IMG/VR virus record: IMGVR_UViG_3300042503_000838
Span: 1 to 64,000 of that record
Source of the DNA: a virus
DNA length: 64,000 nt
Strand: one strand, 5' to 3'
Below are positions 1 through 41,904 of the stretch, one piece after another. The notes under the pieces were generated by a model that saw nothing but the letters and a program-made list of their open reading frames with translations, was not told where the DNA came from and searched no databases. A program made the position numbers and the translations under genes. The stretch's first letter is position 1, and every line of letters begins with the position of its first letter.

Positions 1-131
1 TCCAGAGAACAAAGCTATTCGCTGTGATGTTTCAGCAGGTATATTTGCGGAAACAAACAACTTGCCAGTGCTGATATTTGTGCCTCCAATAAGCAGCGCA
101 CCGGCGCTAGTCAGCCTCATCCGCTCCGTCG
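1..131. repeat. Direct repeat copy 1 (copy 2 at 41263-41393), inside tail-fibre coding sequence
   Basis: 129/131 identical to 41263-41393; mismatches at 105 (c/t) and 114 (g/a). It may extend left of the window. Confidence 0.95.
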
Positions 132-1755
132 TGGTGCTTGCTCCGTCGGCGGTAGTGGAGAACACTAATCTAGACGGAGTATCACCACTTCCGCTTGCTG
201 CATCTGCAACAGCAGTAATCGTGGCTCGTGCATCAGCTAAGCCATCGCCAAACCAGATGGTCCCCAAATCAGTGTCAACTGCCGTGGCATTGCTACCACG
301 CTTAATTTGAATAACGCCTACTCCTGTTGGAGTACCTGGAAAGCCTGCAACAGTTAACAATGAGTTGGCAGCGCTCGAAGACGTGCCAACTAAGAGCCTG
401 CCGGAGCTATCAATCCGCATAGCCTCCACGCCGCCTTCAGTAAACGCAAGCGTGTCAGCTGTGGGACTGTAGATGCCGGTGTTGGGGTCGCCAGTAAAGC
501 TGTAGGTCGGGGCTGCGGCACTGCCAAGGCTTACGGCCTCAATCTGGCCACTGGCATCGATACGCAGTCGCTCCGTCGTGTTAGTGGCAAAAGAAAGTTG
601 ATTTGCTGCGCTGAGGTAGAGCCCGTTCGCGGGAACCGTGCTGCTGGTAGGAATGAAGCTGGCGGCGGTGCTAGTGCCAGTGGACGTGACGTTCTGGCTA
701 CCGAAGTTTGGGCTGATTTTGGTGCCGGCAATGGCGGCCGATGCGTTTACGTCGCCGTTAACGATGGTGCCGTCAGCAATTTTATTGCTGGTGACAGCTC
801 CAGCATCAATAGTCCAAACCGTACCAGAACCGCTAACAGTAATATCACCGTAATCGGCGTCTCCAATACCAGCAGCTACAGACGTATCTACGTAAAGTTT
901 GGTAGCAGCATCAGTGTTTGCTGTAGGTGTACCAAGCCCAGTAATTTTATTGGAGCCCATGTCTAGGGCACCGCTCATCGTGTCGCCAGTAACGTTTATA
1001 TAGCGAGCATCGTAACGAGCGTCAGAAGCGCTAGTTGTAAAGAAACTGGTGTCATCAGGGGTGCTAATACTTTGCTGTGCGTTAGTGACAACAGTAGCTG
1101 CGTTTAACTTAGCGCTAGTAATTACACCGTCAGCAATCTTGGCTGTAGTAACAGCAGAGTCAACTAGCTTTGCAGTTGAAATACTGGCGTTAGTAACACC
1201 GACAGTAATTTGACCGCTACTGGGGCTGTTGTCGGTAACAGTAATTGAATCTCCAGCAACAACATCAGTTGTTAAAGCTGTATCAATTTTGGAGTCAACC
1301 CGAGCATCAATAGCTCCAGTAGTGGCTGCTTGAGAATTATTAGAAACCCAAGTTTCATTGCTACCAATAAAACCACCAAGAGCACTAAGATCACCAGTGC
1401 CGCTAGTAAGAGCACCATAAGTGTCAGAAAACTCTTGAAGACCGTAACGAATTTGATTATCAGCGTTGTTAAGGTCTTGGGCTGTCAGCGTAGAACCAGC
1501 TGTGTAAACCACAGTGGCATCACTAATATCAGTAACCCTAGAAATAATGATGCTTGCGTTTGTAACTGGAGTTGCAAGAACAATAGAAGTTCCAGCGGTG
1601 TTAAAGGTATATTGAGTGCTTTGAGTAAGGACAACACCGTTAACAGTTACTGAAATATCAGACTGACGAAGATACGGAATTGGATCTCCTTCGCTATTAG
1701 TAAGAGCAAAGGTAGTACCAGAAGCACTGGTGTAGGTAATCGATGCGTAAGCCAT
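1..1755 (-). CDS. gp17: Tail fibre (T7 gp17-like N-terminus), runs off the window's left edge
   Basis: Not in the ORF track (no stop in window). ATG at 1755 overlaps the gp16 stop (TAATG). Hand translation MAYASITYTSASGTTFALT...YLRQSDISVTVNG...AGSTLTAQDLNNADNQIRYGLQE fits the gp17 attachment domain; later SGRLLVGTS and RLVFSTTADGA..TERMR fibre motifs. Directly follows the gp16-like gene. Confidence 0.9.
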   Translation of the reverse strand, partial: MAYASITYTSASGTTFALTNSEGDPIPYLRQSDISVTVNGVVLTQSTQYTFNTAGTSIVLATPVTNASIIISRVTDISDATVVYTAGSTLTAQDLNNADNQIRYGLQEFSDTYGALTSGTGDLSALGGFIGSNETWVSNNSQAATTGAIDARVDSKIDTALTTDVVAGDSITVTDNSPSSGQITVGVTNASISTAKLVDSAVTTAKIADGVITSAKLNAATVVTNAQQSISTPDDTSFFTTSASDARYDARYINVTGDTMSGALDMGSNKITGLGTPTANTDAATKLYVDTSVAAGIGDADYGDITVSGSGTVWTIDAGAVTSNKIADGTIVNGDVNASAAIAGTKISPNFGSQNVTSTGTSTAASFIPTSSTVPANGLYLSAANQLSFATNTTERLRIDASGQIEAVSLGSAAAPTYSFTGDPNTGIYSPTADTLAFTEGGVEAMRIDSSGRLLVGTSSSAANSLLTVAGFPGTPTGVGVIQIKRGSNATAVDTDLGTIWFGDGLADARATITAVADAASGSGDTPSRLVFSTTADGASTTTERMRLTSAGALLIGGTNISTGKLFVSANIPAETSQRIALFSG

Positions 1756-4700
1756 TACTGAGGACCTCCGGTCATGCGGTTGGTGAGAATCATTTGTTTC
1801 ATTTCAGGTGGCGCTTTGTAGCGTTGACCAGGAAGGTCACCCATTAAAAATTGCTCCTTAGCAATACCTATAAGTTTATCCACTTCGTTCTTAAGAATTA
1901 CACGACGCATATTATCTTCTCGATTCCAATTAGCATCTTGAACCAAACCAAACGGTCCCATTTTAAAAGGACTGTCTACACCTGGATACTGTGTGTACTC
2001 TTTACTAGTTACTAGACGCTTAAGATACCCATAAACACCTTTTTGTGTTTTTTGAGTGTTGGGATCAAAGAACGTGAACTCACTATTCAAAAAGTGATTG
2101 AAATCGTTTAGGACTACATCGTTAATACCAACTCCATCACTATGGAACAGGGTTTTACGTGGCGGTGAGATCAGGTTGTATACCATTTCCTTAGCCACAG
2201 GATCCTCAAGCTTGTCAGGGAACACCCAGTAACGACCTAGGACAGCCTGCAATGGGTACCAAACACCAGCGTGGTTAGCTTTAACCGTTTCACCTGAAGG
2301 ACCGTACCAGAGGGCTTTACGAGACCTTGTACGTATTTCGGGATCTTTCCGCAACACAGATATTAAAGCGTCTGCAATAACACCTACAGGGCTGTACTCA
2401 GTGGCAATACCAAAAGTACCAAAAGCAGTGTCAGCAACGCTGTTAATAAAGTCAGCAGGAGTTACACCTTTTTCACCAAGTTTTCCACGGCTATAAAACT
2501 TTGTCAGAGCAGACTGGCTTACAGGTGTAGCTGGTTTACGAGGATCAATGCCTTGGATAAGGACTTTGCGTAGGTTGAGATAAGGATCACCAGCTTTTGC
2601 TACTGAATCAGAAATCATTTTTTGCAACCTACTTACATCACCAGAAGTAGCTGTTTTAAGTGCAGCGATGAGTTTGTCAAAACCAGCAATTGAAGGAGTA
2701 TCAAGAATAGTGTTAGCTAGAGCAGCAGCAGCAATAGCTACAAGTCCAGAAGTATCACGCCCAGGAGCAAACTCTTGAAGGTCTCGAATAGTGGCGTGGA
2801 AAGCCAAAGTGTTACCAAGTACTGGCAAGTAGCGATAAGGCAAAGTCTTACCACCAATACGCCAGGTGTAAGTATCTACAGCTCCCTCCGCTTCACGGTA
2901 GGAGTTCTCAAGACCACCAGTGATATCTTGATTTCCATCACGAGTCAAGAAGAAAGCCAGAGAGTTGATGCCAATAGAAAGTGCAAGAGCACCTTGAGCA
3001 AGTGAACGTTGTTTGGGATCACTGCTTAGATACTTACTTTCAAAATCAATAACTTGTTGACGGGTTTCAGGAGGCAGAAGTTTTGTGACTTCTTCTGGGA
3101 GGTTTTTAACAATTGTTGAAGCAGTAGCTCGTACAACGTCAGAAGAGGCTTGCACCACTTCACCGCCATATGCAATCATCACAGCACGTTTAATGCCGTT
3201 AACCGGAGAGGTAATGATTGGGAAAATGTCCCTAGCAAAGAACGCAAGGGGAGTGTACTTACTTTGACGCCAAGAGTTAATAGATTCTGTAATGTCACTC
3301 AGCGGACCTGTAAGCTCTTCTGTAAGGTTTACAGCACGGGTAAGTTCAAGCATTTGGTTATCAAGAACTGAGTAACCAATAGTCTTTTGATCAAACCCTA
3401 CCTTTACTGGTTTGTACATATTAGAAGCTTCTTTGTTCAACTTGTCTGCAAGAACAGTTGCACGATCTTCAGCCTTGACAAGTCCTGCCGCAATCTGTTC
3501 ATCAACCTCACTAGTAATTCGAGCCCTCATACCAGCGTTAGCAAATAGCGCTGTAGAAAACTCGTCAGCAACTGCAGAGAGTTGGTTAAAAACAGTAAGG
3601 TTTACATCCTCACCGCTTGGGTAATAACTCTTCTTACCTAGGCCCATACCACGCAAAGCAGTAGTGGGTAAGCCAATTCTTTTACCAATAAGGCTTCGCT
3701 TACTCCAAGCTTCAGCAGGCATAAAGTAATCGTGGAAAACTTTAGTCATCACACGACTTTTGTTTAAGAGATCAAAGAGCTTTTCGTTCTCTGCGCTCTT
3801 TTCCATTACATAGTCAAAGAAAGGAGTTTTAAGTTTGGTTGCGCTCAAATCTTGAGCAATGGCCTCCTCCCTACGCAGACTAGATTTGCTTGAAATTTCG
3901 TAAGCAGAATCAGCTGCTGCCTTTGGATCAGTAATAGAACGACCATAAACAAAACGGTTATACGTGGCGTCTAGGGCCTCTCCAATGACGTTACGCAGCT
4001 GTAAAAGAGTTTCAGTAGCAGCTCGGGCCTCTCTAAGGCTTTCAGCAGCCAAAGGAGTTTTACCAAGAAATTTAGCTGTAGTACCAGTAATAGTTTGCCC
4101 AACAGCCATACCCATTAGTTGAGCTGCTGTTTCAGGAATTCCTTGAATAGGAATTGAAGCAATCATTGCTGGGTTAGACAGCGGAGAGCCGACTTGAAGA
4201 CGAGCTAGAACTGCATCACCAGTAACCTCAAGCTCTTTAAGCTTTTCAAAATCACCTTGGCTTTGATAAACCTTTTCAACCAAAGCTTCAAAACCCTCTA
4301 GTTCTTCATCGGTGAGATCTTCACCAGCTTTCACCTTTTTAAAGAACTGACCAATACCTTGATCAAGCTCTTCTTTGGCTGATTTAGCTGCATCAGAAAG
4401 GCTGTCAGCAAACTCGCTACTATCACCAAAAGATGCAAGCTGCTCGTTAAAAGCACTGAAAAGCTCTTCAGGGCTACGAGAGGAGAACCCAAGACGGTTA
4501 CGACGGTCAAAGAGCCTGAGAGCGTTACCAACGCCATAGAACAACTCATTAACAGCTTTTACGTTTGACATCAGAACTTGATAACTCTCAGCTGCGTTGA
4601 CAAGAGCTACGGTGCGATCAAGTCCTTCAACTTCTTCACCTTGAAGAACCCTCCTAAGGTCCCTAGCATCCCTAAGAGCTGCTACAGCACTGTCGTCCAA

Positions 4701-10258: not shown

Positions 10259-11307
10259 TTGAATTGTTCGGAAATGGTCGGCTTAGGAGGTTGCATAGAC
10301 TTGTAGTTTTCGAAAGCTTCAAGTCCAATATTTGCTAAATCAATCGTAAGCGCAGTTGGGGAAGGACCAGATACAGGCGTAGGTGGTACCGCAGTAATAG
10401 GTAGAGGAGCTAGCGGTTTGACTGGATCAGAAATTGGCTGAGGTGTATAGAACTGAGCTTGGTTGGTCGTGTTTTGCCTTGCTACATCCAAAGCTTCACC
10501 TTGACGAACCTTATCCGCTATTCGGAAATTGCGAGTGATCTCACGATTACTGACGTTAGCCAGATACTGTTGGTGATATTGATTAGTCAAACGTTCAACA
10601 GATCTACCAACCTGACCACGAGCTTGAGCCTTACCAGCAGCTGCAATTGATTGAGCCCTAAGGTTTTCAATTTCTACAGTCTCTTTAGCTTCTTCTTCGT
10701 AGAACCTACCTTCAAGGTCTGCAATTTGACGCTCAAAGTTTTTAAAGGCTTGAGAAGCCGTCGCACCTACGAACTCAGATTGTTGCTTAGCTAGTTGATC
10801 TTCGTAATCTCTACGTTTTTGAACGTAATCAACATCCCTGTAATAGGTCTCAAGTTGATACTGGTAATCCCTATAATTTTGAGCTACTTGGTCTGCATAC
10901 CGAGCCCAATACTCCTGCTGAGCCGCTGCATTTTGAGCCACTGTATCGGCTGCTCGTGTTTTGTAAGCAGCTGCTGCAGCTGTAGCATCCATAATCCCCT
11001 TACCAATTGAGAGGATTGAAGGTAGCTCAAAAATGCCCTGTAGGGCTTGATTAAAGAAGTTGTTATCGTTTTTTTGAGTTTTAAATAGTCCTGAATAATC
11101 TGGAACATTAAGTTTTGGAATCCCAAAATCTGCTCCAAAGTCAAACCCCCCGGTAAACCCCAAAGACCCAATATCAAAAGAAGGCGAAAAAGCCTTACTT
11201 GAGTAATCGGGTACGTCAATTTTAGGGATATTTAAAGTTTTACCTAGATCCAGATTTAGGTCAAAATTTGAAGAGCCAGAAAATTTTGAAAAATCAGAAA
11301 AAGTCAT
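10255..11307 (-). CDS. Internal virion protein (gp14-like)
   Basis: Position after tail tube B; Ala/Gln-rich helical core with 'GQVGRSVERL' resembling gp14-type proteins. Confidence 0.65.
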   Translation of the reverse strand: MTFSDFSKFSGSSNFDLNLDLGKTLNIPKIDVPDYSSKAFSPSFDIGSLGFTGGFDFGADFGIPKLNVPDYSGLFKTQKNDNNFFNQALQGIFELPSILSIGKGIMDATAAAAAYKTRAADTVAQNAAAQQEYWARYADQVAQNYRDYQYQLETYYRDVDYVQKRRDYEDQLAKQQSEFVGATASQAFKNFERQIADLEGRFYEEEAKETVEIENLRAQSIAAAGKAQARGQVGRSVERLTNQYHQQYLANVSNREITRNFRIADKVRQGEALDVARQNTTNQAQFYTPQPISDPVKPLAPLPITAVPPTPVSGPSPTALTIDLANIGLEAFENYKSMQPPKPTISEQFK

Positions 11308-15037: not shown

Positions 15038-15046
15038 TATTGCAAC

Positions 15047-15073: not shown

Positions 15074-15106
15074 CATTGTATTGGTAATTAACTAGAAGCT
15101 AGTTAA

Positions 15107-28379: not shown

Positions 28380-28445
28380 TAAAAGACCTCCAAAGGTTAG
28401 TTGCCCCCTGGAGGTCCGGTGTCCTTTCATCCTTGTCCGAACTGA

Positions 28446-30279: not shown

Positions 30280-30559
30280 CTACCGCGCCCTGTGCGCCCG
30301 CATGGCTGACGAGCTAGATCGTTACCGCCAGCTCCTGATGGATGATCGCCGTGAAACTCATGCGTTGGCGGCTGAAGCCCGCGCCGCCCTGGCCCAGCCC
30401 GAGCCGCAGGGGCCGACGGATGAAGAGCTGCACGACCTGTGGGATCAGGAAGGCCCTGAGGCTGACTTCCAAGAGTGCCGCCGCTTTGCCCGCGCCGTCC
30501 TTGCCAAATGGGGCCGCCCCGCCATCGAGCCGGTGCCGCAGCAGGAGGCTGAGCAATGA
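30272..30559 (+). CDS. Hypothetical protein (MTDYRALCARMADEL...)
   Basis: ATG 30272 in the frame of track ORF 30182-30559; overlaps the previous stop. Confidence 0.75.
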   Translation: MTDYRALCARMADELDRYRQLLMDDRRETHALAAEARAALAQPEPQGPTDEELHDLWDQEGPEADFQECRRFARAVLAKWGRPAIEPVPQQEAEQ

Positions 30560-31183: not shown

Positions 31184-31570
31184 CTAAGGGTCAAGGCCAC
31201 CGTCGTTTCCTTCTTCGTACAGAGACTCGAAATCTCCTTCTTCATTCAAGAAGTAACACTCGCTGTTCTTGATCCTTTGGTAGTCACCCTCCAACAGGTC
31301 AGCAAATGAACCGACTAACGATTGGCACAACGCTGCTTCTAACACTGATTTATGAAGCGTCGTTTGTGCCAGTACAACTTGCTCTAAAGTCTCAGACTCC
31401 TCTTCTTCCTCCTCACCCGCTTCGCTATTCATTTCCAGATACTCCAAACACTGATTGGCGCGTGATTGAAGCACCTGCATACGTGCCATCAAAAGGGGTA
31501 TATACTGCTTTGCCACTTGCTTAAGCGGCGCGTAGAACTTCTCCCTTCCAGACATAGTGGGTTGTGTCAC
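31184..31570 (-). CDS. Hypothetical early protein, acidic
   Basis: 128 aa ORF converging with the plus-strand cassette. Confidence 0.7.
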   Translation of the reverse strand: MTQPTMSGREKFYAPLKQVAKQYIPLLMARMQVLQSRANQCLEYLEMNSEAGEEEEEESETLEQVVLAQTTLHKSVLEAALCQSLVGSFADLLEGDYQRIKNSECYFLNEEGDFESLYEEGNDGGLDP

Positions 31571-31683
31571 GGGCTGTTAAAGAGGTCTTCCAACAATTTA
31601 GCCCCTGCCCCGTGGCGTGACCCGTGGCCGTGATAGTAGTTAGACCCGAACATCTGTACTACTCTCCCCTCTCCTCTTGATAC

Positions 31684-31730
31684 TGAGAATCATTCTCAAG
31701 TAGTCCTATTGCTGTTGCGACTCATTCTCA
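31684..31730. promoter_or_regulatory. Two Fur-box-like 7-1-7 palindromes
   Basis: TGAGAAT-C-ATTCTCA (31684-31698, perfect) and TGCGACT-C-ATTCTCA (31716-31730), in an intergenic region. Confidence 0.55.
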
Positions 31731-31782
31731 ATAAACCTGATCTCTCACAATATCGGCATATAACGATAACGTTATATCGTAA

Positions 31783-31814
31783 GTAAAGTTAAAGGGGCCC
31801 TAGATAAGGCCCCT
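31783..31814 (-). terminator. Probable intrinsic terminator
   Basis: AGGGGCC/GGCCCCT stem (31793-31814) followed by TTAACTTT on the minus strand, downstream of 31915-32586. Confidence 0.6.
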
Positions 31815-31914
31815 ATATAACTCTTAATTAGCTCTTAAATAGCCTAAAACAGTGATGATAATAGGGAGACAGAAGAGTAAACAATACCCGAGAAACTTAG
31901 GGAGCTGATACATC

Positions 31915-32586
31915 TCAACCTCTGCGCTCCTCCACTGTTTGCCAGAGAGTTATCCCCAGGTAGGTCATACCAGCGTTGACGAGAGCAGTAGCAAAGTCGT
32001 CAGGATCTTCTATTGTTTGACCTTCCACTAGTTGAAGACGTGAGGTGTAGCCATAAGCTGAGCAAGCCTCATCAACCCAGTGAAGGACACAATCAGTATT
32101 GCATTCGTAGAAGTTAAGAAGATCTTTGATATAGCACATATCAATATTTACGAAATCAGAACGATCGTAATTAGAAAGAGCTTCAGGAGCGTCGTTGTAG
32201 CGATCAATGAACCACTCGACACAGCTATCGTTTACCCAATCAAACGCATCATCAACAATGAACTTGAGAGTGTCGTACTCACACTGCTCATCTTCAGTGA
32301 TGCAGAGGTTTCGGTAGATTTCTTTGGCGTTGTCACTAAGGGAGTTCCATCCAGTGAACAAAGCACCAGGATCAAACCTCATTGCGGATATCTTGGAAAG
32401 CCTTTCGTAGCCCCTGCTAAATTGTCCGTCGTGATGCTCACTCCAGAACAAATGGTGAGCAGACACGATGTCAAAACGATCAAAGGTTGCAGGGCTCATC
32501 ATTGTCGTCGTCATCATCGGATTCAGTGAAAGGAAAGAGGGAGTCGGAATCGTATTCAAGCTCCCAGCGTGATAGTTGGTCTTCAC
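31915..32586 (-). CDS. Early protein with acidic C-terminal half (possible Ocr-like DNA mimic)
   Basis: Early-region position; ~28 D/E versus 7 K/R in the last ~125 aa (manual count). Function is inference; start may be nearer 32514. Confidence 0.5.
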   Translation of the reverse strand: MKTNYHAGSLNTIPTPSFLSLNPMMTTTMMSPATFDRFDIVSAHHLFWSEHHDGQFSRGYERLSKISAMRFDPGALFTGWNSLSDNAKEIYRNLCITEDEQCEYDTLKFIVDDAFDWVNDSCVEWFIDRYNDAPEALSNYDRSDFVNIDMCYIKDLLNFYECNTDCVLHWVDEACSAYGYTSRLQLVEGQTIEDPDDFATALVNAGMTYLGITLWQTVEERRG

Positions 32587-32619
32587 ACCAGGAGTTGAAC
32601 AAATAGAACGCTGGGTTGT

Positions 32620-32739
32620 TCACCTAATTAGAACAACACGTTGAGTACCACTGTGAGTTACTGAGCTATCGCTTGCCTCATCGATTGCCATAAAGACCAG
32701 AGCACAAACAGCGAGGGTAGACAGGATAAATTCTTTCAT
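32620..32739 (-). CDS. Small protein with hydrophobic N-terminus (39 aa)
   Basis: MKEFILSTLAVCALVFMAIDEASDSSVTHSGTQRVVLIR; start overlaps the previous stop. Confidence 0.55.
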   Translation of the reverse strand: MKEFILSTLAVCALVFMAIDEASDSSVTHSGTQRVVLIR

Positions 32740-32936
32740 CAGTACAACTGGCTAACGGTGATCTCGTTGCCCTCTGTATCAACACAAAGGAAACCTAAAG
32801 CTGCAATGGTGCCTAGAGCGCTAGGAATCAATGTTTTAGTGCCTGTCAAGCGAAGCAGGAGGATGGCTTCCTGACTTACTGGATAGGCTCTCGTAAGGCC
32901 GTAGTGGCTCTCAAGTTTAAAAGTAATTGGTTTCAA
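32739..32936 (-). CDS. First early small protein (65 aa)
   Basis: ORF track; first ORF after the long non-coding stretch. Confidence 0.65.
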   Translation of the reverse strand: MKPITFKLESHYGLTRAYPVSQEAILLLRLTGTKTLIPSALGTIAALGFLCVDTEGNEITVSQLY

Positions 32937-33116
32937 GGTTTGAAAGGAAAAGGGAAAGCAGCAAGCCCTCTCGGCTCGCTTGACGGAACTATAGACCCTG
33001 ATCAGTGCCAGGTAGGGCTAGAGGCTACTGATCCTGTTGTAATCCGTAACAGTCAGTTCAGAGGCCTCTGGAAGGTCCTGCAGCAGGCCTGCAGAAGCTT
33101 TAAGTGGGGATGGTAG

Positions 33117-33188
33117 TGAAGGCTGTCTGAAGGCTGTCTGAAGGCTGTCTGAAGGCTGTCTGAAGGCTCTCAGAGGGCTCTCAGAGGG
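33117..33188. repeat. 11-bp tandem repeat (TGAAGGCTGTC x4 plus degenerate copies)
   Basis: Four perfect units at 33117-33160, then TGAAGGCTCTC, AGAGGGCTCTC, AGAGGG. Confidence 0.95.
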
Positions 33189-33416
33189 CACCTAGATGTG
33201 GCCAAGCGCGCGCGTGTACATGTGATTAGCCAAACTTATCAATCCCCTTAAAACCCTCTAATTGCCTTATCAATTGCCATCGTTATGCCCCCCTATAACG
33301 GCATCGGCATGTGTTTATAGGCCCTTTAAAGGCCCCCAAGGGGGGTTTGGGGCCGGGGCGATACGCTAACTAGGGCTCAAAAATCTGAAGCAAAACCCTT
33401 TCACCCCATCAAAAAT

Positions 33417-33440
33417 AAAAAAGGAGCCCTTTAGGACCCC
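33417..33440 (-). terminator. Probable terminator ending the late/thyX transcript
   Basis: Minus strand GGGGTCC-TAAA-GGGCTCC followed by a T run. Confidence 0.65.
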
Positions 33441-33572
33441 CTTAAACCTTTTATCTACCTTCAACTTAAAATCGGGGAGACGTTATCGGACGCCTCCTGA
33501 ACCGAACCCTAAGGCCAACACAACTATAAACCCTTCTGAGAGCCCTTTAGGAGCCCCTAAAAAGCCCTCTAA

Positions 33573-33791
33573 TTACTTCTTCGACCTGTTGTAGCTCTTA
33601 CTGACCACTTGAAGGTTTTTAGAGCTGTTATTACGGGGGTTACCGTCTTTGTGATCTACGTCTTTACCGTTAACGTTGTAACCAGCTTTTACAGCTTTAC
33701 GTCGAGCTTTGTTACGGCTTGATCTGTTTTCTCTTTGTTCTGGTTTGGAGTGGTAATTGTCGTATTCCTTACGGTAGTTACGCTTTGTCAT
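33573..33791 (-). CDS. Small HNH-motif protein
   Basis: 'GKDVDHKDGNPRNNSSKNLQVVSKSYNR'. Confidence 0.8.
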   Translation of the reverse strand: MTKRNYRKEYDNYHSKPEQRENRSSRNKARRKAVKAGYNVNGKDVDHKDGNPRNNSSKNLQVVSKSYNRSKK

Positions 33792-34426
33792 AACCAGTCA
33801 AGAGCTTTACCAATAGTAGGCAACTCTTTACAAAAGATTTGTTTAGCTTCGTTAGCTAGTTGCAAGTGTTCTAGTTGAGTCCCATTTTGAGACCGTAGAT
33901 CAATGTAGTGGATCCAGCTTCTGATTGAACCAGCCATATACATCCTGGTTGGAGTAGCTAGGGGAAGAACTTCACGAGCACACTCTTTAGCTACACCACT
34001 GGATACCATCTCTCGGTACAGATCTTGAGCCTCTTCAAACAGCTGACCAATACGCCTGTAATAGATCTGAGTTTTAGCTGTATCTAGATCATCAATACTG
34101 TTCTGCCTGTTTGTCAGGTCTTGTCTTCTGAGGTGAGGAGCTTTGGCATAACCAATAGCTTCTGTATCTGCGTATCGCTGACTAAATTCTTGAAAGCTGA
34201 AAGACCTATGTCGAAGTATTTGAGCAGAGATAGATCTAGTGGTGTTTATCTCCAGGACCATATGAACCATTTCAAAGGGTGACCAATGCTTATGGTTGAT
34301 CAAGTATTTAATAAGTTTTTCTGATCCTTGGTTATTACTTTGATTACTGGGGTTACTGACCCTAGCCATATAGACCACTAGGTCTTCTGCATCAGGTGTG
34401 ACTGTGATCAGCTTTACCCTGTCCAT
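33788..34426 (-). CDS. thyX: Flavin-dependent thymidylate synthase
   Basis: ThyX signature 'RHRSFSFQEFSQRY', plus 'HWSPFE' and 'AKECAREVLP'. Confidence 0.97.
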   Translation of the reverse strand: MDRVKLITVTPDAEDLVVYMARVSNPSNQSNNQGSEKLIKYLINHKHWSPFEMVHMVLEINTTRSISAQILRHRSFSFQEFSQRYADTEAIGYAKAPHLRRQDLTNRQNSIDDLDTAKTQIYYRRIGQLFEEAQDLYREMVSSGVAKECAREVLPLATPTRMYMAGSIRSWIHYIDLRSQNGTQLEHLQLANEAKQIFCKELPTIGKALDWL

Positions 34427-34429
34427 CGT

Positions 34430-34649
34430 TAAAGCCCTTGTAACTGGCTTAAGCAGCTTAGGGCTTTAAGCAGCTGTTTAAAGGCTGTCTAACTGGTCTT
34501 AAATGGGTCTTTTTAAAAGGTCTTTAAGAAAGAGGTCTTAAAGAGGTAACAGCTAAAGACCTCTTTTAAAGAAGACTCTTTAAGTACCTCTTTAAATACC
34601 TTTAAAAGGAGTCTAACTACGCTGTCAAGTACCCCTCTCCAAGAGCGTA
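34430..34649 (-). promoter_or_regulatory. Control element copy B (inverted homologue of 29465-29640)
   Basis: Reverse complement carries TACGCTCTTGGAGAGGG, the identical 23-mer ACCTCTTTAAGACCTCTTTCTTA, several TTAAAG(AG) repeats and a TTGACA (plus 34623-34628). Confidence 0.6.
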
Positions 34650-34799
34650 TCTCTTAAAGGGGGGTCTCTTTGCGTATCACCTAGAGGGGCTTTTACCGTA
34701 AACCCTTCTGAGAGGCCCCCAGAAGACTCTCTAAGGCCCCTTTAAGCCGTTTTAGGTGTCAGGGTAGCCAAAGGGCCTTTTAAAGCCTCCTAGAGTCTT

Positions 34800-36557
34800 C
34801 TAGAGGTCCTCTAGCCAATTAGAGGCTCCTGAGGTGGCGTAGAGGGCTTTTTGAAGGTCTTCAAGGGATCTGGCGTATCCAAGAGCATCAATAGAGAGAC
34901 CACCGTCACCTTGGACAAACTTTCGTTCCAGTTCCCACTGTTCTGCTTCCCTAGCAGCGATAGCTTTTTGTTCTGTAACAGCCATCGACTCAGTAAAATA
35001 CTGAACAGCCATTGCTAAGGCGTCTAAGCGGTCGTCATGCCTGATGCTGTTTTTCTCTTTGGTAATCCTTGTCAGCTGGAAAAACAGTTGATATTGGCTT
35101 CTGACTTCGCCTGGGTAGCACTCTGTGGAGGCAATGTCGTTAGTGATTACGTCAGTGTCAACCATGAGCCGGTGTTGGTTAAGGACAGGCTCAAGGGTGT
35201 CGATAATGCGGAGTTCCTTTTGCTTTGTGTGTCGAACCTCTTCAACAGTGCAGGGGTAAATCGTTCCGAGGTATCGCTTAAGAAGCTCGGAGAACATACC
35301 GAGGCCGAGGTTACTTTCAACAAGTATTTGCTTGACCTTGAACTCTTTAGCGATGAGGGCCAGCTTTTTGAGGTTCGGTTCGCTGTAACCACCCCTAAGG
35401 CCACCACTGGAGAGGAGGAACAAATTACCGTTCAAGTAAGCCACTACTGCGTAGCCAAGCTCGTCACTGCCGCGTCCAGAAGGGTCAACGGCCATGACCA
35501 CCCCGGTGTATTCAAGAAATTCATCCCCTATTTGGGCCGGTTTGTAAAACAGATCACCATGAAGACCGACTGAGGGTAGGTCAAGGGCTTTATCGCCGTT
35601 AGCAAGCCACACGACTTTATTAGGGCCGTTTTCACGGTTTAAACGGAACACACAAAGGTCTCTGAGCTTGAGAGGAAACCGCTCCTCATCACTCAGGCTG
35701 ATGTCCAACAGGAACTGCAGGTTGAACGTTGAACGACCGATAGAGAGCTGACGAGCTTCCAGTTCAGCCCAGTCAAAACGTTCAGGGTCTACAGGGTGTC
35801 CAGCGAGGCCTTTATCAGCTTCTAGATCGGCTTGGATCTTGGGTGCTAGACGGTCACCGTAATAGCTTTTAAGCTTTTTACCGGTTGGATACAGAGCAGG
35901 CCAGATCCTTACGTTGTAACCAGAGACCTCAAGCTTTGCGTAAACACTGTCTTGGGTGTGAGGCGTACCAAGAAACACGATCTCACCACCAGGCTTGATC
36001 ACAGAGTCAAACTCTTTAATGGACTCCCGGAGCTTGTCTCGAATCAGTTGAGTTTCACAGGACTGGGGTGTCTCAACGTCGTCAGCAACGATGAGGTCAG
36101 CACGGGAGCCAGTAATTTGACCAAAGATACCGCTGGAACGTACCGAAGGAGACTGGTCTGGTTTTGCGCCGTAAACGTCAAAAGCAACCTTACTAAACCG
36201 TTGCGTGTCGCTAGGGAAAAGGTCTTTGACCATAAACCAGTTGCGTAACAAGTCATGGCAAAACACGGAGAACGCATCAGCACGGTCTTGAGCTGCAGAG
36301 ATCACCAAGACCTTACAGTTTGGATCCCTACGGAGTCTCCAAAGTACGTAACCAGCTGTCAAAAACGACTTACCACAGCCTCGGTAAGCCATGATGATGC
36401 GACGGCTAGGACCGCTTTGTAGAAAGTCAGCTACTTGGTATTGGACCGGTGTTGGGCTAGGAAGCCGTAGGTAATGCCAAAGGTGAGTAGCAAAGATTGG
36501 AAAACTTTCTACCGCTTCCTGAATAATCTGTTCAGTCTGTTTGCTTTGCCGTGCCAT
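34800..36557 (-). CDS. gp19: Terminase large subunit (T7 gp19-like)
   Basis: 'AYRGCGKSFLT', 'GQITGSRADLIVADDVE', 'LGTPHT', nuclease 'AVDPSGRGSDE', 'HDDRLDAL'. Confidence 0.97.
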   Translation of the reverse strand: MARQSKQTEQIIQEAVESFPIFATHLWHYLRLPSPTPVQYQVADFLQSGPSRRIIMAYRGCGKSFLTAGYVLWRLRRDPNCKVLVISAAQDRADAFSVFCHDLLRNWFMVKDLFPSDTQRFSKVAFDVYGAKPDQSPSVRSSGIFGQITGSRADLIVADDVETPQSCETQLIRDKLRESIKEFDSVIKPGGEIVFLGTPHTQDSVYAKLEVSGYNVRIWPALYPTGKKLKSYYGDRLAPKIQADLEADKGLAGHPVDPERFDWAELEARQLSIGRSTFNLQFLLDISLSDEERFPLKLRDLCVFRLNRENGPNKVVWLANGDKALDLPSVGLHGDLFYKPAQIGDEFLEYTGVVMAVDPSGRGSDELGYAVVAYLNGNLFLLSSGGLRGGYSEPNLKKLALIAKEFKVKQILVESNLGLGMFSELLKRYLGTIYPCTVEEVRHTKQKELRIIDTLEPVLNQHRLMVDTDVITNDIASTECYPGEVRSQYQLFFQLTRITKEKNSIRHDDRLDALAMAVQYFTESMAVTEQKAIAAREAEQWELERKFVQGDGGLSIDALGYARSLEDLQKALYATSGASNWLEDL

Positions 36558-36786
36558 TGCTATGAGCCCACTTAAAAACTTGGCTCAAGTTATTCTGCAG
36601 CAACAGGTTCATCTTTACGTAAGCAATCAAAAGGTCTTGAAGGGTTTCTTTGCTTACGGTAGGTAGGTCACGCTCAATAGCAGCCACACGAAACTGCTGT
36701 TCAAGCGTCAGTTCTACCTTTGGCCAAGGCGGTAGATCTACACCGCTATTGGGTAAGGATTGGTAAATCTCGTCGAATTGATCCAT
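36532..36786 (-). CDS. nblA: NblA-like phycobilisome degradation protein
   Basis: 'ELTLEQQF..AI...L..VSKE.LQDLLI.Y.KM' matches the NblA 'LSLEQQF' helix-turn-helix pattern (recalled, not searched). Confidence 0.7.
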   Translation of the reverse strand: MDQFDEIYQSLPNSGVDLPPWPKVELTLEQQFRVAAIERDLPTVSKETLQDLLIAYVKMNLLLQNNLSQVFKWAHSNGTAKQTD

Positions 36787-37118
36787 TGGAGGATGGTCTG
36801 CTTACGCTCCTCACAGTAGTAAGGTTTGCGCTGATACCACATCATCCAGTGCTCTGAGCCTTTGTTGTGGTTACAACGCTGACAAGCAGGAACTACGTTT
36901 GTTGATACGTCTTGACCTCCACGGGTCTTGGGTTGAACGTGATCAAGAGTGAGTTCTTCGTGATGCTCACCGCAGTAAGCACACCGGTTGCTAAACGCTT
37001 CTTTGATTGACTGTCTCCATTGACGAACGGCTTCTTTACGCTGCAACGCTTGAAGGTTAGCCATAACATCGTCAGGGCTTAAATAGACAAAACCCCCAGC
37101 AGGCGATCTAGTCACCAT
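36738..37118 (-). CDS. HNH endonuclease
   Basis: 'CAYCG...LTLDHVQPKTRGG...NVVPACQRCNHNKG'; next to the terminase genes. Confidence 0.92.
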   Translation of the reverse strand: MVTRSPAGGFVYLSPDDVMANLQALQRKEAVRQWRQSIKEAFSNRCAYCGEHHEELTLDHVQPKTRGGQDVSTNVVPACQRCNHNKGSEHWMMWYQRKPYYCEERKQTILQWINSTRFTNPYPIAV

Positions 37119-37158
37119 ACCGGGGGCTCTGCTTGGTACATATAGGAAGTTTTAGTTC

Positions 37159-37431
37159 CTAAGCACCAATATAACTGCGAACCTTCTTGATATCGACATC
37201 TGGAAGCGCAGAAATCATTTCAGAAATAGCAGAGACATCACCACCGTTAAGAGCAGTAATACCTTGGTCCTTCAGGAACTTAATAGCGTTAGCAAGGTCA
37301 GAAGCTTTTACGTCGTCACGATTCAGCTGATCGATCAGTTTAGTAGCCACCAAGCGGTGAAGACTAAACAGATCATCATCCGAAGCTAGACCTTCAGTCT
37401 TATTTAGAGACTTTTTTGGCGAGGCTGCCAT
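37159..37431 (-). CDS. gp18: Terminase small subunit (T7 gp18-like)
   Basis: 'ASDLANAIKFLKDQGIT' motif; position upstream of gp19. Confidence 0.8.
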   Translation of the reverse strand: MAASPKKSLNKTEGLASDDDLFSLHRLVATKLIDQLNRDDVKASDLANAIKFLKDQGITALNGGDVSAISEMISALPDVDIKKVRSYIGA

Positions 37432-37564
37432 AAGCAACACGAAATAGTTTCAACCCCAATTGTACGAGGCTGTTTTGCTTCAACTTAGACACACCAATGA
37501 TTTCAGAAGCTGCAAACGCAGCAAGCCACAAAGCAGCTTGAACTTGAGGATCAGAAAAGTCCAT
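37400..37564 (-). CDS. Small membrane protein (holin candidate), 54 aa
   Basis: MDFSDPQVQAALWLAAFAASEIIGVSKLKQNSLVQLGLKLFRVAYGSLAKKVSK; directly after the endolysin; basic C-terminus. Confidence 0.6.
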   Translation of the reverse strand: MDFSDPQVQAALWLAAFAASEIIGVSKLKQNSLVQLGLKLFRVAYGSLAKKVSK

Positions 37565-37569
37565 AACAT

Positions 37570-38673
37570 TTACCCAGGTTTCTTAATCAAAATAGCCCAG
37601 CCAGATCCTGGGCCTTCTACTAACCACCTTTTGTTCCAGTTCTTTTTGGAATACGCAACACCTTTTCCTCCTGTGTGGTTGATGTAACCACCGTTGACCA
37701 TATTTGCTTCACCGTTTGGATCGTTCTGAATCCAAGCACCTTCTGTGTACCCAATTACTACAGAATAGTGCCCAGAGCCACCAGGATCGCCTACAGGGCC
37801 CTTGTGGAGCCATCCAGCTACTACGGGCCTACCAGCGTCTAACTCGCCTTGTAGAAGCTCCTGGGTGCCTCTCTGAGTGAAGCTCGCATCAAGCCCTAAA
37901 TGCTTAAGAGTTTTGATTTGTGCTTGAGCGTCTGTTGAATCGCCATACCGCTTCCTAATGGCGTTATATTCATCGTCTGTTTTTACCTTGCCGTAAAACT
38001 CAGCCACCATTGCACAGCTACTAGAGAAACACTCTCGATACCCAGTGCCACTTTTGTTGTCGTTTTGGTACTCGTAAGGTACCTTTAGTATTACTTGTTT
38101 TGCTAATACTTTTGATTTATTAGGATTACGACTAACAAGATTAATAAGTTTGTCAGTATAAGCAGGATCTGTTGCGTATCCCTGTTTAGCTAGTTGTTTA
38201 GCTGCTTCTGTTGCACTGGAGGCGTTGTTGACACCTTTATAACTTTTGTAATCTTTGTACCACCGCTCAACGAGGTATGTAACGCACTCTTTAAGAGAAG
38301 AGAAATTAAGAAACCCGTCCCTAACAGAAATAGGTACTCCATTTACATACTCCGTTGTTTCTACGGACTTACCAGAGCCTTTAAGTCCAAAGTAATTATG
38401 AGTCCCCGATGTGTGTTTACCCCAGTTACTTTCCAAGGCCCACTGAGCTGCTACTAGCTCTGGATACTTAGCCCCCGCTTCCCGCGCTAGCTGCTCTACA
38501 CCGTCCCAAGACCCAGTGCTAGGAATGCTGTTCTTAGGACCAGACCGCCACAAATCAGAAAACTTTGCAATGGTCCCTGGAGGAATCTGATCCTGCAGGA
38601 AGTCCAAAGCAAAGTTTTGATGTTCTTGGTTGTTGTAATACTTAACTACGTCACGAAGAGATACGTCTGTCAT
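37570..38673 (-). CDS. Endolysin: GH73 glucosaminidase plus C39-like peptidase domain
   Basis: 'AQWALESNWG...NYFGLKG...YATDPAY' (GH73); 'VPYEYQ...CFSSSCAM...GHYSVVIGY...NDP' (C39-like). Confidence 0.85.
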   Translation of the reverse strand: MTDVSLRDVVKYYNNQEHQNFALDFLQDQIPPGTIAKFSDLWRSGPKNSIPSTGSWDGVEQLAREAGAKYPELVAAQWALESNWGKHTSGTHNYFGLKGSGKSVETTEYVNGVPISVRDGFLNFSSLKECVTYLVERWYKDYKSYKGVNNASSATEAAKQLAKQGYATDPAYTDKLINLVSRNPNKSKVLAKQVILKVPYEYQNDNKSGTGYRECFSSSCAMVAEFYGKVKTDDEYNAIRKRYGDSTDAQAQIKTLKHLGLDASFTQRGTQELLQGELDAGRPVVAGWLHKGPVGDPGGSGHYSVVIGYTEGAWIQNDPNGEANMVNGGYINHTGGKGVAYSKKNWNKRWLVEGPGSGWAILIKKPG

Positions 38674-38905
38674 TTAGTAGGATCCGATCTAGTTTTTCGT
38701 CGATGTGTTGGATCCGTTGGTCAATACGGTCCATCATCGGCATTAGCTCGTCCTTTCTAACAAACTCTTTGTGAATCGTCATCTCCACTTGATCAATACG
38801 ACGGTCCAACTCTGAATGCCGTTTGTGAGACCAAGCAAAAGTACCGCCAGCAAGGCTAGCAAGACCAAGAAAAGTGGACAGGATGAAGGAAGGTTCCATA
38901 ATCAA
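38651..38905 (-). CDS. Single-TM coiled-coil protein (lysis-associated candidate)
   Basis: Hydrophobic N-terminus followed by heptads 'IDQRIQHIDEKLDRIL'; directly upstream of the endolysin. Confidence 0.6.
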   Translation of the reverse strand: MIMEPSFILSTFLGLASLAGGTFAWSHKRHSELDRRIDQVEMTIHKEFVRKDELMPMMDRIDQRIQHIDEKLDRILLNDRRISS

Positions 38906-39120
38906 ACGCCCCTTAACGTGGCTCTAAGTTTCCTGGCATTTTTAATAATCTCTTGACCACGAGGCGTAGTTTTCAAGGCGTTGTTAAGCTTTTTAAGATC
39001 AGCTGCCCTTTCCTCAGGTGACAGATTTGGTTCGTCGTCAACGGGACCAATCAAAAAGCTAGGACCACCAGCAACTTTGGTGTCCCGTTTCTTCATCCCG
39101 TAACCAGATTTACTTTTCAT
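38902..39120 (-). CDS. Small basic protein
   Basis: ORF track; coupled to neighbours. Confidence 0.6.
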   Translation of the reverse strand: MKSKSGYGMKKRDTKVAGGPSFLIGPVDDEPNLSPEERAADLKKLNNALKTTPRGQEIIKNARKLRATLRGV

Positions 39121-39209
39121 TTTTTAGGTACGCAATTGGGAACTGTTTTAGTACCCTTCTTTTTGGTACCAACCATTTCGTAACCTTTCCAGCAGGGTCC
39201 TTTAGCCAT
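39117..39209 (-). CDS. 30-aa basic peptide with CWKGY...VPNCVP motif
   Basis: MAKGPCWKGYEMVGTKKKGTKTVPNCVPKK; overlaps both neighbours' start/stop codons. Confidence 0.7.
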   Translation of the reverse strand: MAKGPCWKGYEMVGTKKKGTKTVPNCVPKK

Positions 39210-39499
39210 TAGGTAACTCCACGAAGTTTGTAACTTTTTGGTTTTCTATTATCAGCTCCAGGCATTTTATCTTTTGTACCTGGGCCAAAACCACGACGAT
39301 TTTCTGGCGTATTCCAGTGGCGACCTCCGTGCCAATTATGTTGAGCGGGAGAAACGTCACGAGGAAGTTCGTTTAATTTGGCGTCTAAAAAAGTACGGTT
39401 TTTACGCGGTACATCGGAATACAGTCGATCTTCTCTAGCAGGTGAAGAGAAAATTTCAAGCAAGCTTTTACGTTTTTGTTTAGGCATAGTCGTGCTCAC
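39209..39499 (-). CDS. Small basic protein
   Basis: ORF track; coupled. Confidence 0.6.
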   Translation of the reverse strand: MSTTMPKQKRKSLLEIFSSPAREDRLYSDVPRKNRTFLDAKLNELPRDVSPAQHNWHGGRHWNTPENRRGFGPGTKDKMPGADNRKPKSYKLRGVT

Positions 39500-39969
39500 T
39501 TCATTTTGGTGTTGTACTTACGACCACGCCAACTAAATTCTTCACGACCAGTTTTACGGGCCATAGAGAACGCATCATCAAAAGAACCTTTGTCAGCTTT
39601 CATTTGCTGATCACGAAGTTCCAATTGACGACGACCTTTGTTCTCTTCATAAAACCGCTTCTTCATTTCTGGAGTCAGTTCAGCCTTAGCCGTAGGGCGA
39701 GGTTTCATAACTTCAGCAGCGATAGCCAAAGGAACAGACAAACGCGACATAGCTCCCCCACCACCGCCACGACCAACACTAGAGGTCCTAGCAGCTCCTG
39801 AAGGGGTCACAGTGCCAGGCATAGAGGCCCTAGGCAGTCGAGCCGTTTGCATAGGCCTTTCACGACCACTAGGGGTTTTTAGACCTCGACCTCGTTGAGT
39901 AGCTCCTTTACCTTCAGGAGCAAAGCGACCAGCGTTACTGCGAGTCTTACCGCCGCGTTTGATTGGCAT
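39496..39969 (-). CDS. Arg/Lys-rich protein
   Basis: 157 aa; C-terminal 'SFDDAFSMARKTGREEFSWRGRKYNTK'. Confidence 0.65.
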   Translation of the reverse strand: MPIKRGGKTRSNAGRFAPEGKGATQRGRGLKTPSGRERPMQTARLPRASMPGTVTPSGAARTSSVGRGGGGGAMSRLSVPLAIAAEVMKPRPTAKAELTPEMKKRFYEENKGRRQLELRDQQMKADKGSFDDAFSMARKTGREEFSWRGRKYNTKMK

Positions 39970-39973
39970 AGTC

Positions 39974-40120
39974 TTACTTGGTTTTGTAACCTTTTTTCAT
40001 TTTGCCACCCTTTTGGATTTGCGGTTTACCAGCAGCTTTAGCCTCCTTAGACCACCGCTTAGCAATTACAGGCTCTTGAGAGTACATATAACGCATCTGC
40101 TTTTCAGATTTAAACGGCAT
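39974..40120 (-). CDS. Small basic protein (MPFKSEKQMRYM...)
   Basis: 48 aa from ATG 40120. Confidence 0.7.
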   Translation of the reverse strand: MPFKSEKQMRYMYSQEPVIAKRWSKEAKAAGKPQIQKGGKMKKGYKTK

Positions 40121-40155
40121 AGCTAAAGTAAATAACTCTTTAAAAACATAACAAC

Positions 40156-40186
40156 AAAAACAGCCCAAAGATTACTCCAAGGGCTG
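40156..40186 (-). terminator. Possible terminator
   Basis: CAGCCC...GGGCTG stem followed by TTTTTGTT on the minus strand. Confidence 0.45.
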
Positions 40187-40218
40187 CAAATAGAATTTAA
40201 AGTTTTTTACGTTTTTAC

Positions 40219-40613
40219 TCAGCTAGAGCAGTCAGAACGAGAAAACACAAATTCAACAGATGGGGTACCGCCAGTAATAGTTACCAAACGACCTCGAACA
40301 GCTCGAAAAGGTACGTTTTGGATGCTAAACGCAGTTGAACCATTGGCAGTAATTGTAGTGTCACCACCAGCAGGCCCAGGCTTTCGCCGGTCGTGGGGTT
40401 GTGATCGAAGCGGGGCTCGTTCGTCGTCGCCGTCTTGATCAGCCCGTCGCTGCCCACGAACGTACCGCTGCTGGCGCGGGTGAAGGTGATGCGAGGATCA
40501 AGAGTTTTTGTACGGGCAAATTGAAGGTCTAAAGAAGAGGTATTAAAAATACCGCCATTTCTGACGGTAGGAAACACGCTCTCCATTAGACGCTTGGGAG
40601 CAATAATTTTCAT
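40219..40613 (-). pseudogene. Fusion scar: truncated fibre/lectin-type gene 5' end joined out of frame to the 3' remnant of another gene
   Basis: 'LDPRITFTRASSGTFVGSDGLIKTATTNEPRFDHNPTTGESLGLLV' stops abruptly at ~40366. A different frame (40365-40219) reads GDTTITANGSTAFSIQNVPFRAVRGRLVTITGGTPSVEF with no start codon. Confidence 0.6.
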
Positions 40614-40741
40614 TTACCTTGACCGCGATAAACCTTTTTACCCATCTTAAACTTACTGTTTTTACTTTTACCTTGACTGGTTTGCTTAGGTTTTGGTGGC
40701 AGTTTTACTGGTTTGCCGTTAAGAGTTTTACGGTTAGACAT
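40610..40741 (-). CDS. 43-aa basic peptide ending RGQGK
   Basis: MSNRKTLNGKPVKLPPKPKQTSQGKSKNSKFKMGKKVYRGQGK. Confidence 0.75.
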   Translation of the reverse strand: MSNRKTLNGKPVKLPPKPKQTSQGKSKNSKFKMGKKVYRGQGK

Positions 40742-40759
40742 AATCAATTGCTTAAATAG

Positions 40760-40792
40760 AAAAAGGCAACCAGTTTGAAATGACCGGTTGCC
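40760..40792 (-). terminator. Intrinsic terminator after the tail-fibre gene
   Basis: GGCAACCGGT-CATTTCAA-ACTGGTTGCC followed by TTTTT. Confidence 0.8.
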
Positions 40793-40809
40793 CGCCTTAG
40801 CAAGCAGGA

Positions 40810-41904
40810 CTACACGCCCTCAAGGGCTGCAACTTTGGCTTCGATGGTTTCGATCTTGGCGATGGCTTCTTGGAGCGCTTTCACCAACCGTGCCTCTGTT
40901 TTGCTCCAACCAGTAACGGTAAGCATGTCGTCGGTACCCTGGGCAACAGCGTCTGGATATACCTGCTCCATCTCCTGCGCAATAAAACCAATTTGATGAC
41001 CACTACCATCTTTGTAATCAAATTCAACTGGCCTTAAGCTGCAGATATTTTGTAGTTGTGAAGGGATGTCGACGATATTTTCTTTCAACCTGGCATCTGA
41101 AAAACTTCCAAATGCGGCGGCGCCACTACCATTCGCGTTAATTTGCCCGCTGCCACCAGTGCCGTTGTTGATGTAGAAACGCTGGAAGATCTGCGCAGTT
41201 GTGGAGTTGTTGTCAAACTTAGATATAGCAATTCCTTCAAGAATGGCATCGCCGGCTCCGCTTCCAGAGAACAAAGCTATTCGCTGTGATGTTTCAGCAG
41301 GTATATTTGCGGAAACAAACAACTTGCCAGTGCTGATATTTGTGCCTCCAATAAGCAGCGCACCGGTGCTAGTCAACCTCATCCGCTCCGTCGGACTAGC
41401 CGCGCCGTCTGCAGTAGTGGAGAACACTAGGCGGCCTGGCATGTCACCAGATGCGCCAGGGGTGCCGTCTACAAAAGCAACAATGCTTGCTGCTTGATCA
41501 AAGCTCGTGCCATTGGCGCCACTAAAAGAAATAGCTCCAAGTGCATCTCCGCTGGCAACAATTGTGTTCGTTCCTTTCGTTGCAGACTTGGACCGGCCTA
41601 GGACGATGCCAGCCGGGTCGCCAGCGACAGAGGAGTATCTTGTAGCAGTGATATAAGAATCCGCTGAAGTGCCAACAATCTGCAACGCACCGTCTAGGAG
41701 GTTGTTAACGCTAGTAGACGTGCCAACTAAGAGCCTGCCACTGGCATCCGTCCGCCATCTCTCTGTACCACCCGTACTAGCGATAATGACATCACTCCCA
41801 AAGCTGATGCCGGTGTTGGTATCTGTACCCTGCAGAGCTGGTGTAGCAGCTGAACCGTCTACACCGGAGATGCCAGATGTACCGTTGATGTAAAGAGGTG
41901 CCAT
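40810..41904 (-). CDS. Tail fibre with C-terminal intramolecular chaperone (peptidase S74-like)
   Basis: 'SDARLKENI...L..LRPVEFDYK..GFIAQEMEQVYPDAV' followed by a coiled coil. ATG 41904 follows the upstream TGA. Confidence 0.9.
   Translation of the reverse strand: MAPLYINGTSGISGVDGSAATPALQGTDTNTGISFGSDVIIASTGGTERWRTDASGRLLVGTSTSVNNLLDGALQIVGTSADSYITATRYSSVAGDPAGIVLGRSKSATKGTNTIVASGDALGAISFSGANGTSFDQAASIVAFVDGTPGASGDMPGRLVFSTTADGAASPTERMRLTSTGALLIGGTNISTGKLFVSANIPAETSQRIALFSGSGAGDAILEGIAISKFDNNSTTAQIFQRFYINNGTGGSGQINANGSGAAAFGSFSDARLKENIVDIPSQLQNICSLRPVEFDYKDGSGHQIGFIAQEMEQVYPDAVAQGTDDMLTVTGWSKTEARLVKALQEAIAKIETIEAKVAALEGV
41263..41393. repeat. Direct repeat copy 2 (copy 1 at 1-131)
   Basis: Encodes TERMRLTSxGALLIGGTNISTGKLFVSANIPAETSQRIALFSG in both copies. 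Confidence 0.95.

Follow-up and report, generated by a model that had tools for sequence, protein, structure and literature searches.

A 126-kb IMG/VR virus record as a probable assembly chimera of two lake cyanophages that share a tail-fibre tip

Exchange of the C-terminal, receptor-binding part of tail fibres among unrelated phages is known from P2, Mu, P1, lambda and the T-even phages, and mosaic tail fibre genes among unrelated phages were reportedly described by Haggard-Ljungquist et al. in 1992; fibres tipped by an S74 chaperone are known from T5 (pb1) and from the K1F endosialidase. Among cyanophages, two isolates serve as references here: Prochlorococcus phage P-RSP2 (HQ332139, 42,257 bp), treated by PMC9860041 as an outlier clade of its own among T7-like cyanopodoviruses, and Synechococcus phage S-EIV1 (KJ410740, 79,178 bp, circular map), which PMC8790148, in the passage that relays Chenard et al. 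2015, presents as a separate polar freshwater lineage. We analysed the first 64,000 nucleotides (hereafter the window) of the 125,842-bp record IMGVR_UViG_3300042503_000838, window base 1 being record base 1, in which a tail-fibre module of 579 bp, called S, lies between a P-RSP2-like podovirus genome (phage A) and an S-EIV1-like genome (phage B). IMG/VR classes the record as linear and as one virus, with a CheckV completeness of 100%; we conclude that it is very probably (about 0.85) an assembly chimera of two complete, co-occurring lake cyanophage genomes, and that the sharing of S between them is itself a recent exchange.

The record opens inside a fibre gene. Bases 1-131 and 41263-41393 are identical at 129 of 131 positions (exactly so over bases 1-104, with single-nucleotide polymorphisms, SNPs, at 105 and 114), lie in the same minus-strand fibre frame and recur with a period of 41,262 bp; the BLAST E value of 1e-65 places the match far above chance expectation, and identity drops to about 60-70% beyond base 131. 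An earlier, sequence-only reading of the window had pointed to this repeat, to the common fibre frame and to a circle of about 41,262 bp, all of which the alignment bears out; it had also proposed that the contig be inspected leftwards of the window for the remainder of B. There is nothing on that side; B runs to the right and ends in S. When the whole record was compared with itself, its 3' end (125713-125842, 130 bases) matched 40815-40944, the final 127 bases being exactly those of 40818-40944. Because the 3' end repeats 40815-40944, the shared module is 579 bp long and not 131 bp, and B closes on S too. The order along the record is the end of S (131 nt), A, S (579 nt), B and the start of S (130 nt), and two circles close on S, one of 41,262 bp for A and one of 84,898 bp for B:

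1-131, minus strand: partial copy of S at the record start, the 5'-proximal 131 nt in the sense of the gene, with the A-type bases C105 and G114
132-40814, minus strand: phage A-specific genome, a P-RSP2-like T7-type podovirus, which with one S makes the 41,262-bp circle
40815-41393, minus strand: full copy of S, 579 bp, whose ends recur at 1-131 and at record 125713-125842; PF13884
40818-41366, strand not given: exact core of S, 549 bp, a Logan unitig of its own in run X1 and the node into which the repeat collapses in the assembly graph
41394-64000 in the window and on to record 125712, strand not given: phage B-specific genome, S-EIV1-like, which with one S makes the 84,898-bp circle

The product of S is the last 193 amino acids (aa) of the fibre, that is, the distal tip and the S74 intramolecular chaperone, up to the stop codon at 40810-40812. 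Its 549-bp core is the same in every copy compared, including those on four contigs from other assemblies (L095, L096, L102 and L103, listed below). The boundary of the module is sharp: A and B are 58-80% identical at the nucleotide level in the homologous shaft upstream and 100% over the last ~555 nt, and their sequences 3' of the fibre stop are unrelated; the last two codons also differ (..EGV in A, ..EAA in B).

The record holds two incomplete or composite fibre open reading frames (ORFs):

1-1755, minus strand: phage A gp17-type tail fibre, N-terminal 585 aa, the ORF being open at the record start; PF03906 at residues 25-113
40810-41946, minus strand: fibre ORF as found in the record, of 378 aa from TTG at 41946 or 364 aa from ATG at 41904

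The N-terminal part of the A fibre is 57% identical (aa) to the N-terminus of the P-RSP2 fibre, and joining 1755..1 to 41262..40810 predicts a T7-type fibre of 735 aa. Such a joined fibre does occur in another metagenome assembly: protein P0001 of contig L095 is 735 aa long, is 100% identical over the 585-aa N-terminal part and carries both PF03906 and PF13884. The ORF at 40810-41946, in turn, is made up of a B-type N-terminus, S, and the last two codons of A (..EGV), whereas the parental B form on L096 ends in ..EAA; it is 32% identical (aa) to S-EIV1 gene 768..2573. The sequence-only reading, which had placed a gp17 N-terminus at 1755 and an S74 chaperone end at 40810 and had called the right-hand fibre non-gp17, agrees with Pfam on each point: PF13884 (S74) is the sole match on the latter ORF (residues 283-334, 63.4 bits for a cut-off of 22), which lacks a gp17 N-terminus. 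The S74 cleavage motif (Ser / D-x-R-x-K) can be read in the translation as S-D-A-R-L-K, and the fibre is predicted to be self-cleaving.

B also has an additional S74-tipped fibre paralogue outside the window (record 104761-106023, plus strand, 420 aa, 44% identical to the S-EIV1 fibre). It lies on the opposite strand amid replication genes, is not syntenic with S-EIV1, and has short, near-identical shaft motifs (115-186 and 370-402) in common with the A and B fibres.

Phage A on its own reads as a complete podovirus genome, with 28 ORFs collinear with P-RSP2 around the full circle. Its main genes, assigned by PHROG, are:

34800-36557, minus strand: large terminase TerL (phrog_38, E 5e-107; 85% aa identity to P-RSP2)
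26739-28430: primase/helicase
24808-26697: DNA polymerase
21470-22915: ribonucleotide reductase (RNR)
17379-18986: portal (86% aa identity to P-RSP2)
15107-16519: capsid (85% aa identity to P-RSP2)
14402-15076 and 11307-14402: tail tube proteins
37570-38673, minus strand: endolysin

With circle A closed at S, the small ORFs after TerL and the fibre become neighbours, and the gene order of P-RSP2 is regained. The claim of an exact T7 gene order stands for the replication, structural and packaging genes; no match to a single-subunit RNA polymerase (PF00940) was found in the record by a search that was weak, the control genomes being equally silent, and the early region of A contains no ORF above 630 aa. 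P-RSP2 and A share the same collinear replication, structural and packaging modules and are of similar size (42.3 and 41.3 kb). The two differ in origin and composition, P-RSP2 coming from the Red Sea with a GC content of 34% and A from lake-water metagenomes with about 46-47%. They also differ in the fibre, whose C-terminus in P-RSP2 is unlike that of A (only residues 1-229 align), in a segment of about 4.8 kb between the post-TerL small ORFs and the fibre gene of P-RSP2 that A lacks, and in the S-EIV1-type endolysin and the ThyX found in A but not in P-RSP2. An IMG/VR search with the N-terminal part of the A fibre returned distant relatives only (at most 47% over a segment) and no near-identical A genome, though such records may be missing from what was searched.

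Phage B has 96 ORFs collinear with S-EIV1, mostly at 40-87% aa identity, and S-EIV1 is the sole phage record with more than 60% TerL identity to it. Besides a large virion structural protein, B has its own packaging and replication genes:

record 72474-74000, strand not given: TerL (82.5% aa identity to S-EIV1)
record 97167-99032, strand not given: DNA polymerase, a copy separate from that of A
record 115371-117992, strand not given: primase, a copy separate from that of A

Once circle B is closed at S, the S-EIV1 order of gene 78221..731, fibre 768..2573 and gene 3215..4324 is restored. Both phages are from freshwater, with genomes of 79.2 kb (S-EIV1) and 84.9 kb (B); they differ in the fibre, at only 32% identity, and in the fibre cluster of B (41.9-44.5 kb), and some segments of B, such as record 94.1-96.1 kb, have no S-EIV1 counterpart.

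Outside S, homologues in B were found for no more than 5 of the 40 A ORFs, with aa identities of 36-64%, and A and B are otherwise unrelated lineages. One of the regions they have in common is the endolysin gene, found in both shortly downstream of the fibre (37570-38673 in A, record 122877-123989 in B, both on the minus strand) and coding for 367 or 370 aa. The A copy, the only one scanned with Pfam, has Glucosaminidase and C39-like peptidase domains; the A and B endolysins are 50% identical to each other and 50% and 62%, respectively, to the product of S-EIV1 gene 3215..4324, and P-RSP2 has no counterpart. The endolysin is a second, older module common to both lineages. There is also a segment of about 500 bp, 80% identical and in the same orientation in A (30040-30538) and B (record 94212-94710), for which Pfam returned no family; the plus-strand ORFs at 29932-30279 and record 94107-94439 are 64% identical (aa) and have no counterpart in S-EIV1 or P-RSP2, and the A copy of the segment lies in a GC-rich (0.555) stretch with few long ORFs.

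How S is connected to its surroundings varies from one assembly to another. We compared contigs from other samples, letter by letter, with the joins predicted from the record:

L102, sample 3300044642, 988 bp: A-end / S / A-start, the parental closure of A
L096, sample 3300042309, 5,720 bp: B-end / S / B-start, the parental closure of B
L103, sample 3300042453, 1,668 bp: B-end / S / B-start, the parental closure of B
L095, sample 3300034102, 4,246 bp: B-end / S / A-start, the reciprocal cross join
L101, sample 3300042389, 1,439 bp: N-flank of a third fibre / S / B-end

The three parental joins agree with the prediction letter for letter, and contigs that come from the A end stop inside S, at 141 nt for L098 (a MEGAHIT assembly with k141) and at 99 nt for L099 (sample 3300034102). 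Every linkage is found somewhere, which is the pattern of an unresolvable repeat. We considered taking the junction contigs as proof of the parental circles and dropped the idea, S being longer than a short read; what they establish is that linkage is inconsistent, not what it is. An exact scan of metagenome contigs with a 30-mer of the S core returned none; contigs of the Joint Genome Institute (JGI) with S do exist and are evidently missing from the collection scanned, and the scan is not evidence of absence.

A total of 24 runs, belonging to 19 studies and mostly labelled as lake-water metagenomes, contain the stretch 36401-46400, and Logan unitigs from four of these runs (X1, X2, X3 and X7) were placed on 31401-51400, depth being the mean k-mer depth of a unitig, which is noisy. 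The S core forms a unitig of its own in X1, with ends exactly at 40818 and 41366 and a depth of 51.7, so the assembly graph branches at both ends of S. The A-specific unitigs of that run have depths of 25.4 and 26.7 and the B-specific ones 35.0, 34.7 and 37.7: A and B are unequal and roughly additive on S. The coverage step around 41,300 for which the sequence-only reading had suggested looking is thus present in X1, where depth rises from about 26 in A to about 36 in B and reaches about 52 on the repeat. Depths are 13.4-13.8 for A and 18-20 for B in X2, where one B unitig is at 7.9, and 5.2-6.5 for A and 9.7-10.9 for B in X3. Expressed as a ratio of A to B, depth is about 0.7 in X1, 0.7 in X2, 0.55 in X3 and 1.0 in X7, which is not the pattern of equal copy number. 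X7 has near-zero cover on the B fibre cluster (41406-45407) and a contig that leads from A into S; missing cover does not count as evidence in such data, and we did not use it. A and B occur together at comparable depth in all four runs, a co-occurrence that is in part selected for, since the runs were picked by a query spanning both phages.

These results favour a chimera made by the assembler. Packaging and replication genes are present in two full sets, and each side of S has head genes; A and B each match the size and gene order of an isolated phage, P-RSP2 and S-EIV1, respectively; the join lies within the exact 549-bp repeat and the record ends inside S; depth is unequal, linkage is inconsistent across assemblies, and S is also joined to a third phage. 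The sequence-only reading had held a chimera to be more parsimonious than a cointegrate, and the complete genomes, the repeat join, the depth step and the inconsistent linkages lead to the same preference. A typical short Illumina read (assumed to be ~150 nt) does not span the exact core of S, so that in a de Bruijn graph the two circles would collapse at S into a figure of eight; an assembler would then enter S from the A side, leave it on the B side and halt on meeting S again at the end of B, giving S-end, A, S, B and S-start in that order. The exact overlap at the record end is 127 nt, the same number as what we take to be the largest k in JGI metaSPAdes runs. Repeat-mediated chimeric contigs of short-read metagenomes have the same exact-repeat join, k-sized end overlap, additive depth and variable resolution. 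The present case departs from them in that both partners are complete genomes, hence the tidy look of a phage within a phage, and in that the repeat is a functional host-recognition module and not an insertion sequence (IS) element or an rRNA gene.

Several observations nevertheless weigh against a chimera or blunt the case for it. The record starts at the equivalent of position 41263, whereas a clean branch with k=127 at the first SNP predicts 41240; a third variant of S was tried as the cause of this offset and rejected, the SNP of L010 at 41261 and a unitig end of X3 at 41260 giving no exact fit. No Logan unitig in the four runs bridges S, and unitigs are the sole read-level data; their depth is noisy, an A unitig (placed over 31401-33146) standing at 14.7 next to a neighbouring A unitig at 25.4, a difference that we take to be strain variation. 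The junction contigs of other samples cannot tell physical linkages, as an assembler may guess either way. Moreover, L095 fills the 318 nt between the two ends of the record and closes a circle of 126,160 bp, as a true cointegrate would. Both fibre genes are intact in that circle, and IMG/VR and CheckV list one virus, 100% complete. These two points speak for a cointegrate that is stable, one phage within another, or for one genome of 126 kb (an A-S-B-S circle) replicated and packaged as a unit; yet we regard this as highly improbable. Depth is unequal (A at about 26 and B at about 36 in X1, with ratios off 1 in X2 and X3), packaging and replication sets are duplicated with head genes in both parts, the parts fit isolate genome sizes of 42.3 and 79.2 kb, and neither capsid, judging from the genome sizes (~42 kb and 79-85 kb), would have room for a molecule of 126 kb; in addition, parental A-S-A and B-S-B joins occur in other samples, and S is also joined to the fibre of a third phage (L101 and L093).

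Between a chimera and a stable genome stands the possibility that A-S-B and B-S-A molecules arise transiently in co-infected cells by homologous recombination at S, as a minority of dead-end products sampled by a cellular-fraction metagenome. S is exactly identical in A and B and would be a good substrate for recombination, by which it must itself have moved before; both cross joins have been assembled (in the record and in L095), and the two phages are together at comparable depth in all four runs. We nonetheless consider such recombinants an unlikely source of the record, as no molecule spanning S is directly seen and assemblers can yield such joins where none exists, parental joins turn up in assemblies no less often than cross joins, and the co-occurrence is partly an effect of how the runs were selected. 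Quite unlikely, too, in our view, is that the cross joins are physically real in the sense of A::B heteroconcatemers or cointegrates reaching assembly-level abundance in a co-infected lake picocyanobacterium; if they were, two phages would be fusing in nature with no need of an integrase, and a receptor-binding tip would be spreading by the same route among at least four lineages.

The chimera that we prefer leaves the sharing of the fibre tip untouched. Judged by its sequence, S is a recently exchanged host-recognition cassette, and its sharing between A and B is real: S is 100% identical over ~555 nt where the other A-B homologues are at 36-64% aa identity, and, at 98-99% identity, it also ends fibres in two further phage backgrounds. 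The recent sharing of a fibre tip by unrelated phages, which the sequence-only reading had seen as implied by either origin of the join, is upheld by the same comparison. One of the further backgrounds is L093, a 33,950-bp IMG/VR contig otherwise unrelated to A and B, on which S at 99.1% ends a 793-aa fibre that has very large fibre genes as neighbours; the other is L010, a contig of 15,461 bp on which S at 98.3% ends a 724-aa fibre, the other genes being 25-60% identical (aa) to those of B. Across 5.8 billion sequences searched, the identity of the next-best S-like proteins does not exceed 74%. We infer that S would have been swapped by homologous recombination (gene conversion) between fibre genes already related to each other, during co-infection of one host, with crossovers that would fall at two places, one among the final chaperone codons and one within the conserved shaft motif that lies immediately upstream of 41393. 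As in known mosaic tail fibres, tip and chaperone are shared across different N-terminal virion anchors, with a sharp boundary in a conserved shaft motif; the case of S differs in that a podovirus and an S-EIV1-type phage of the same lakes are 100% identical over 549 nt and that S, at 98-99%, ends at least two further fibres, the mark of a very recent and ongoing exchange and not of an ancient one.

For databases, the consequence is that the 126-kb IMG/VR record should be split at S into genomes of 41,262 and 84,898 bp, and that similar mis-joins probably affect other contigs around S; the split gives each of two sparsely sampled cyanophage lineages a complete relative from freshwater. In biological terms, a fibre tip with its chaperone is circulating among lake phages that are otherwise unrelated or very distant from one another, at least four in number, with the module 98-100% identical in nucleotides. 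This implies that their hosts overlap, that co-infection is frequent and that host-recognition modules have crossed between phage families very recently. Since tail-fibre mosaicism is well known, S adds a clean example to a familiar phenomenon and no new principle, and the fusion itself is most likely not a real feature.

Some further observations concern single regions of the two genomes. tRNA and Rfam scans of the window returned no matches. In A, loose unitig ends at 40364, 40415/40419 and 40489/40491 recur in all four runs within 40364-40491, inside a 110-aa ORF (40281-40613) that has no Pfam match, and the summed depth of the bin 40072-40738 is 57, 63, 37 and 9 in the four runs for A flanks at 25, 13, 5 and 4; this short segment seems to be common to other abundant genomes, or else hypervariable. 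The early region of A is flanked by an inverted repeat of 50 nt (29567-29616 and 34521-34570, 88%). The TerL of B (record 72474-74000) is 508 aa long, and that of S-EIV1 (gene 54080..56620, 2,541 nt) aligns to it in two pieces, so that it seems to hold an insertion of about 340 aa, possibly an intein or a homing element, which is absent from B. At 55004-56617 (minus strand), within a patch of B that is rich in GC (0.54), lies a gene for a 537-aa glycosyltransferase (phrog_3408) whose C-terminal part weakly resembles a methyltransferase; nothing collinear with it stands at that position in S-EIV1. Finally, the structural region of B includes, at 58444-59376 (minus strand), an ORF of 310 aa made of collagen-like Gly-X-Y repeats, in 14 overlapping copies with a period of 9, 33 or 42 nt.

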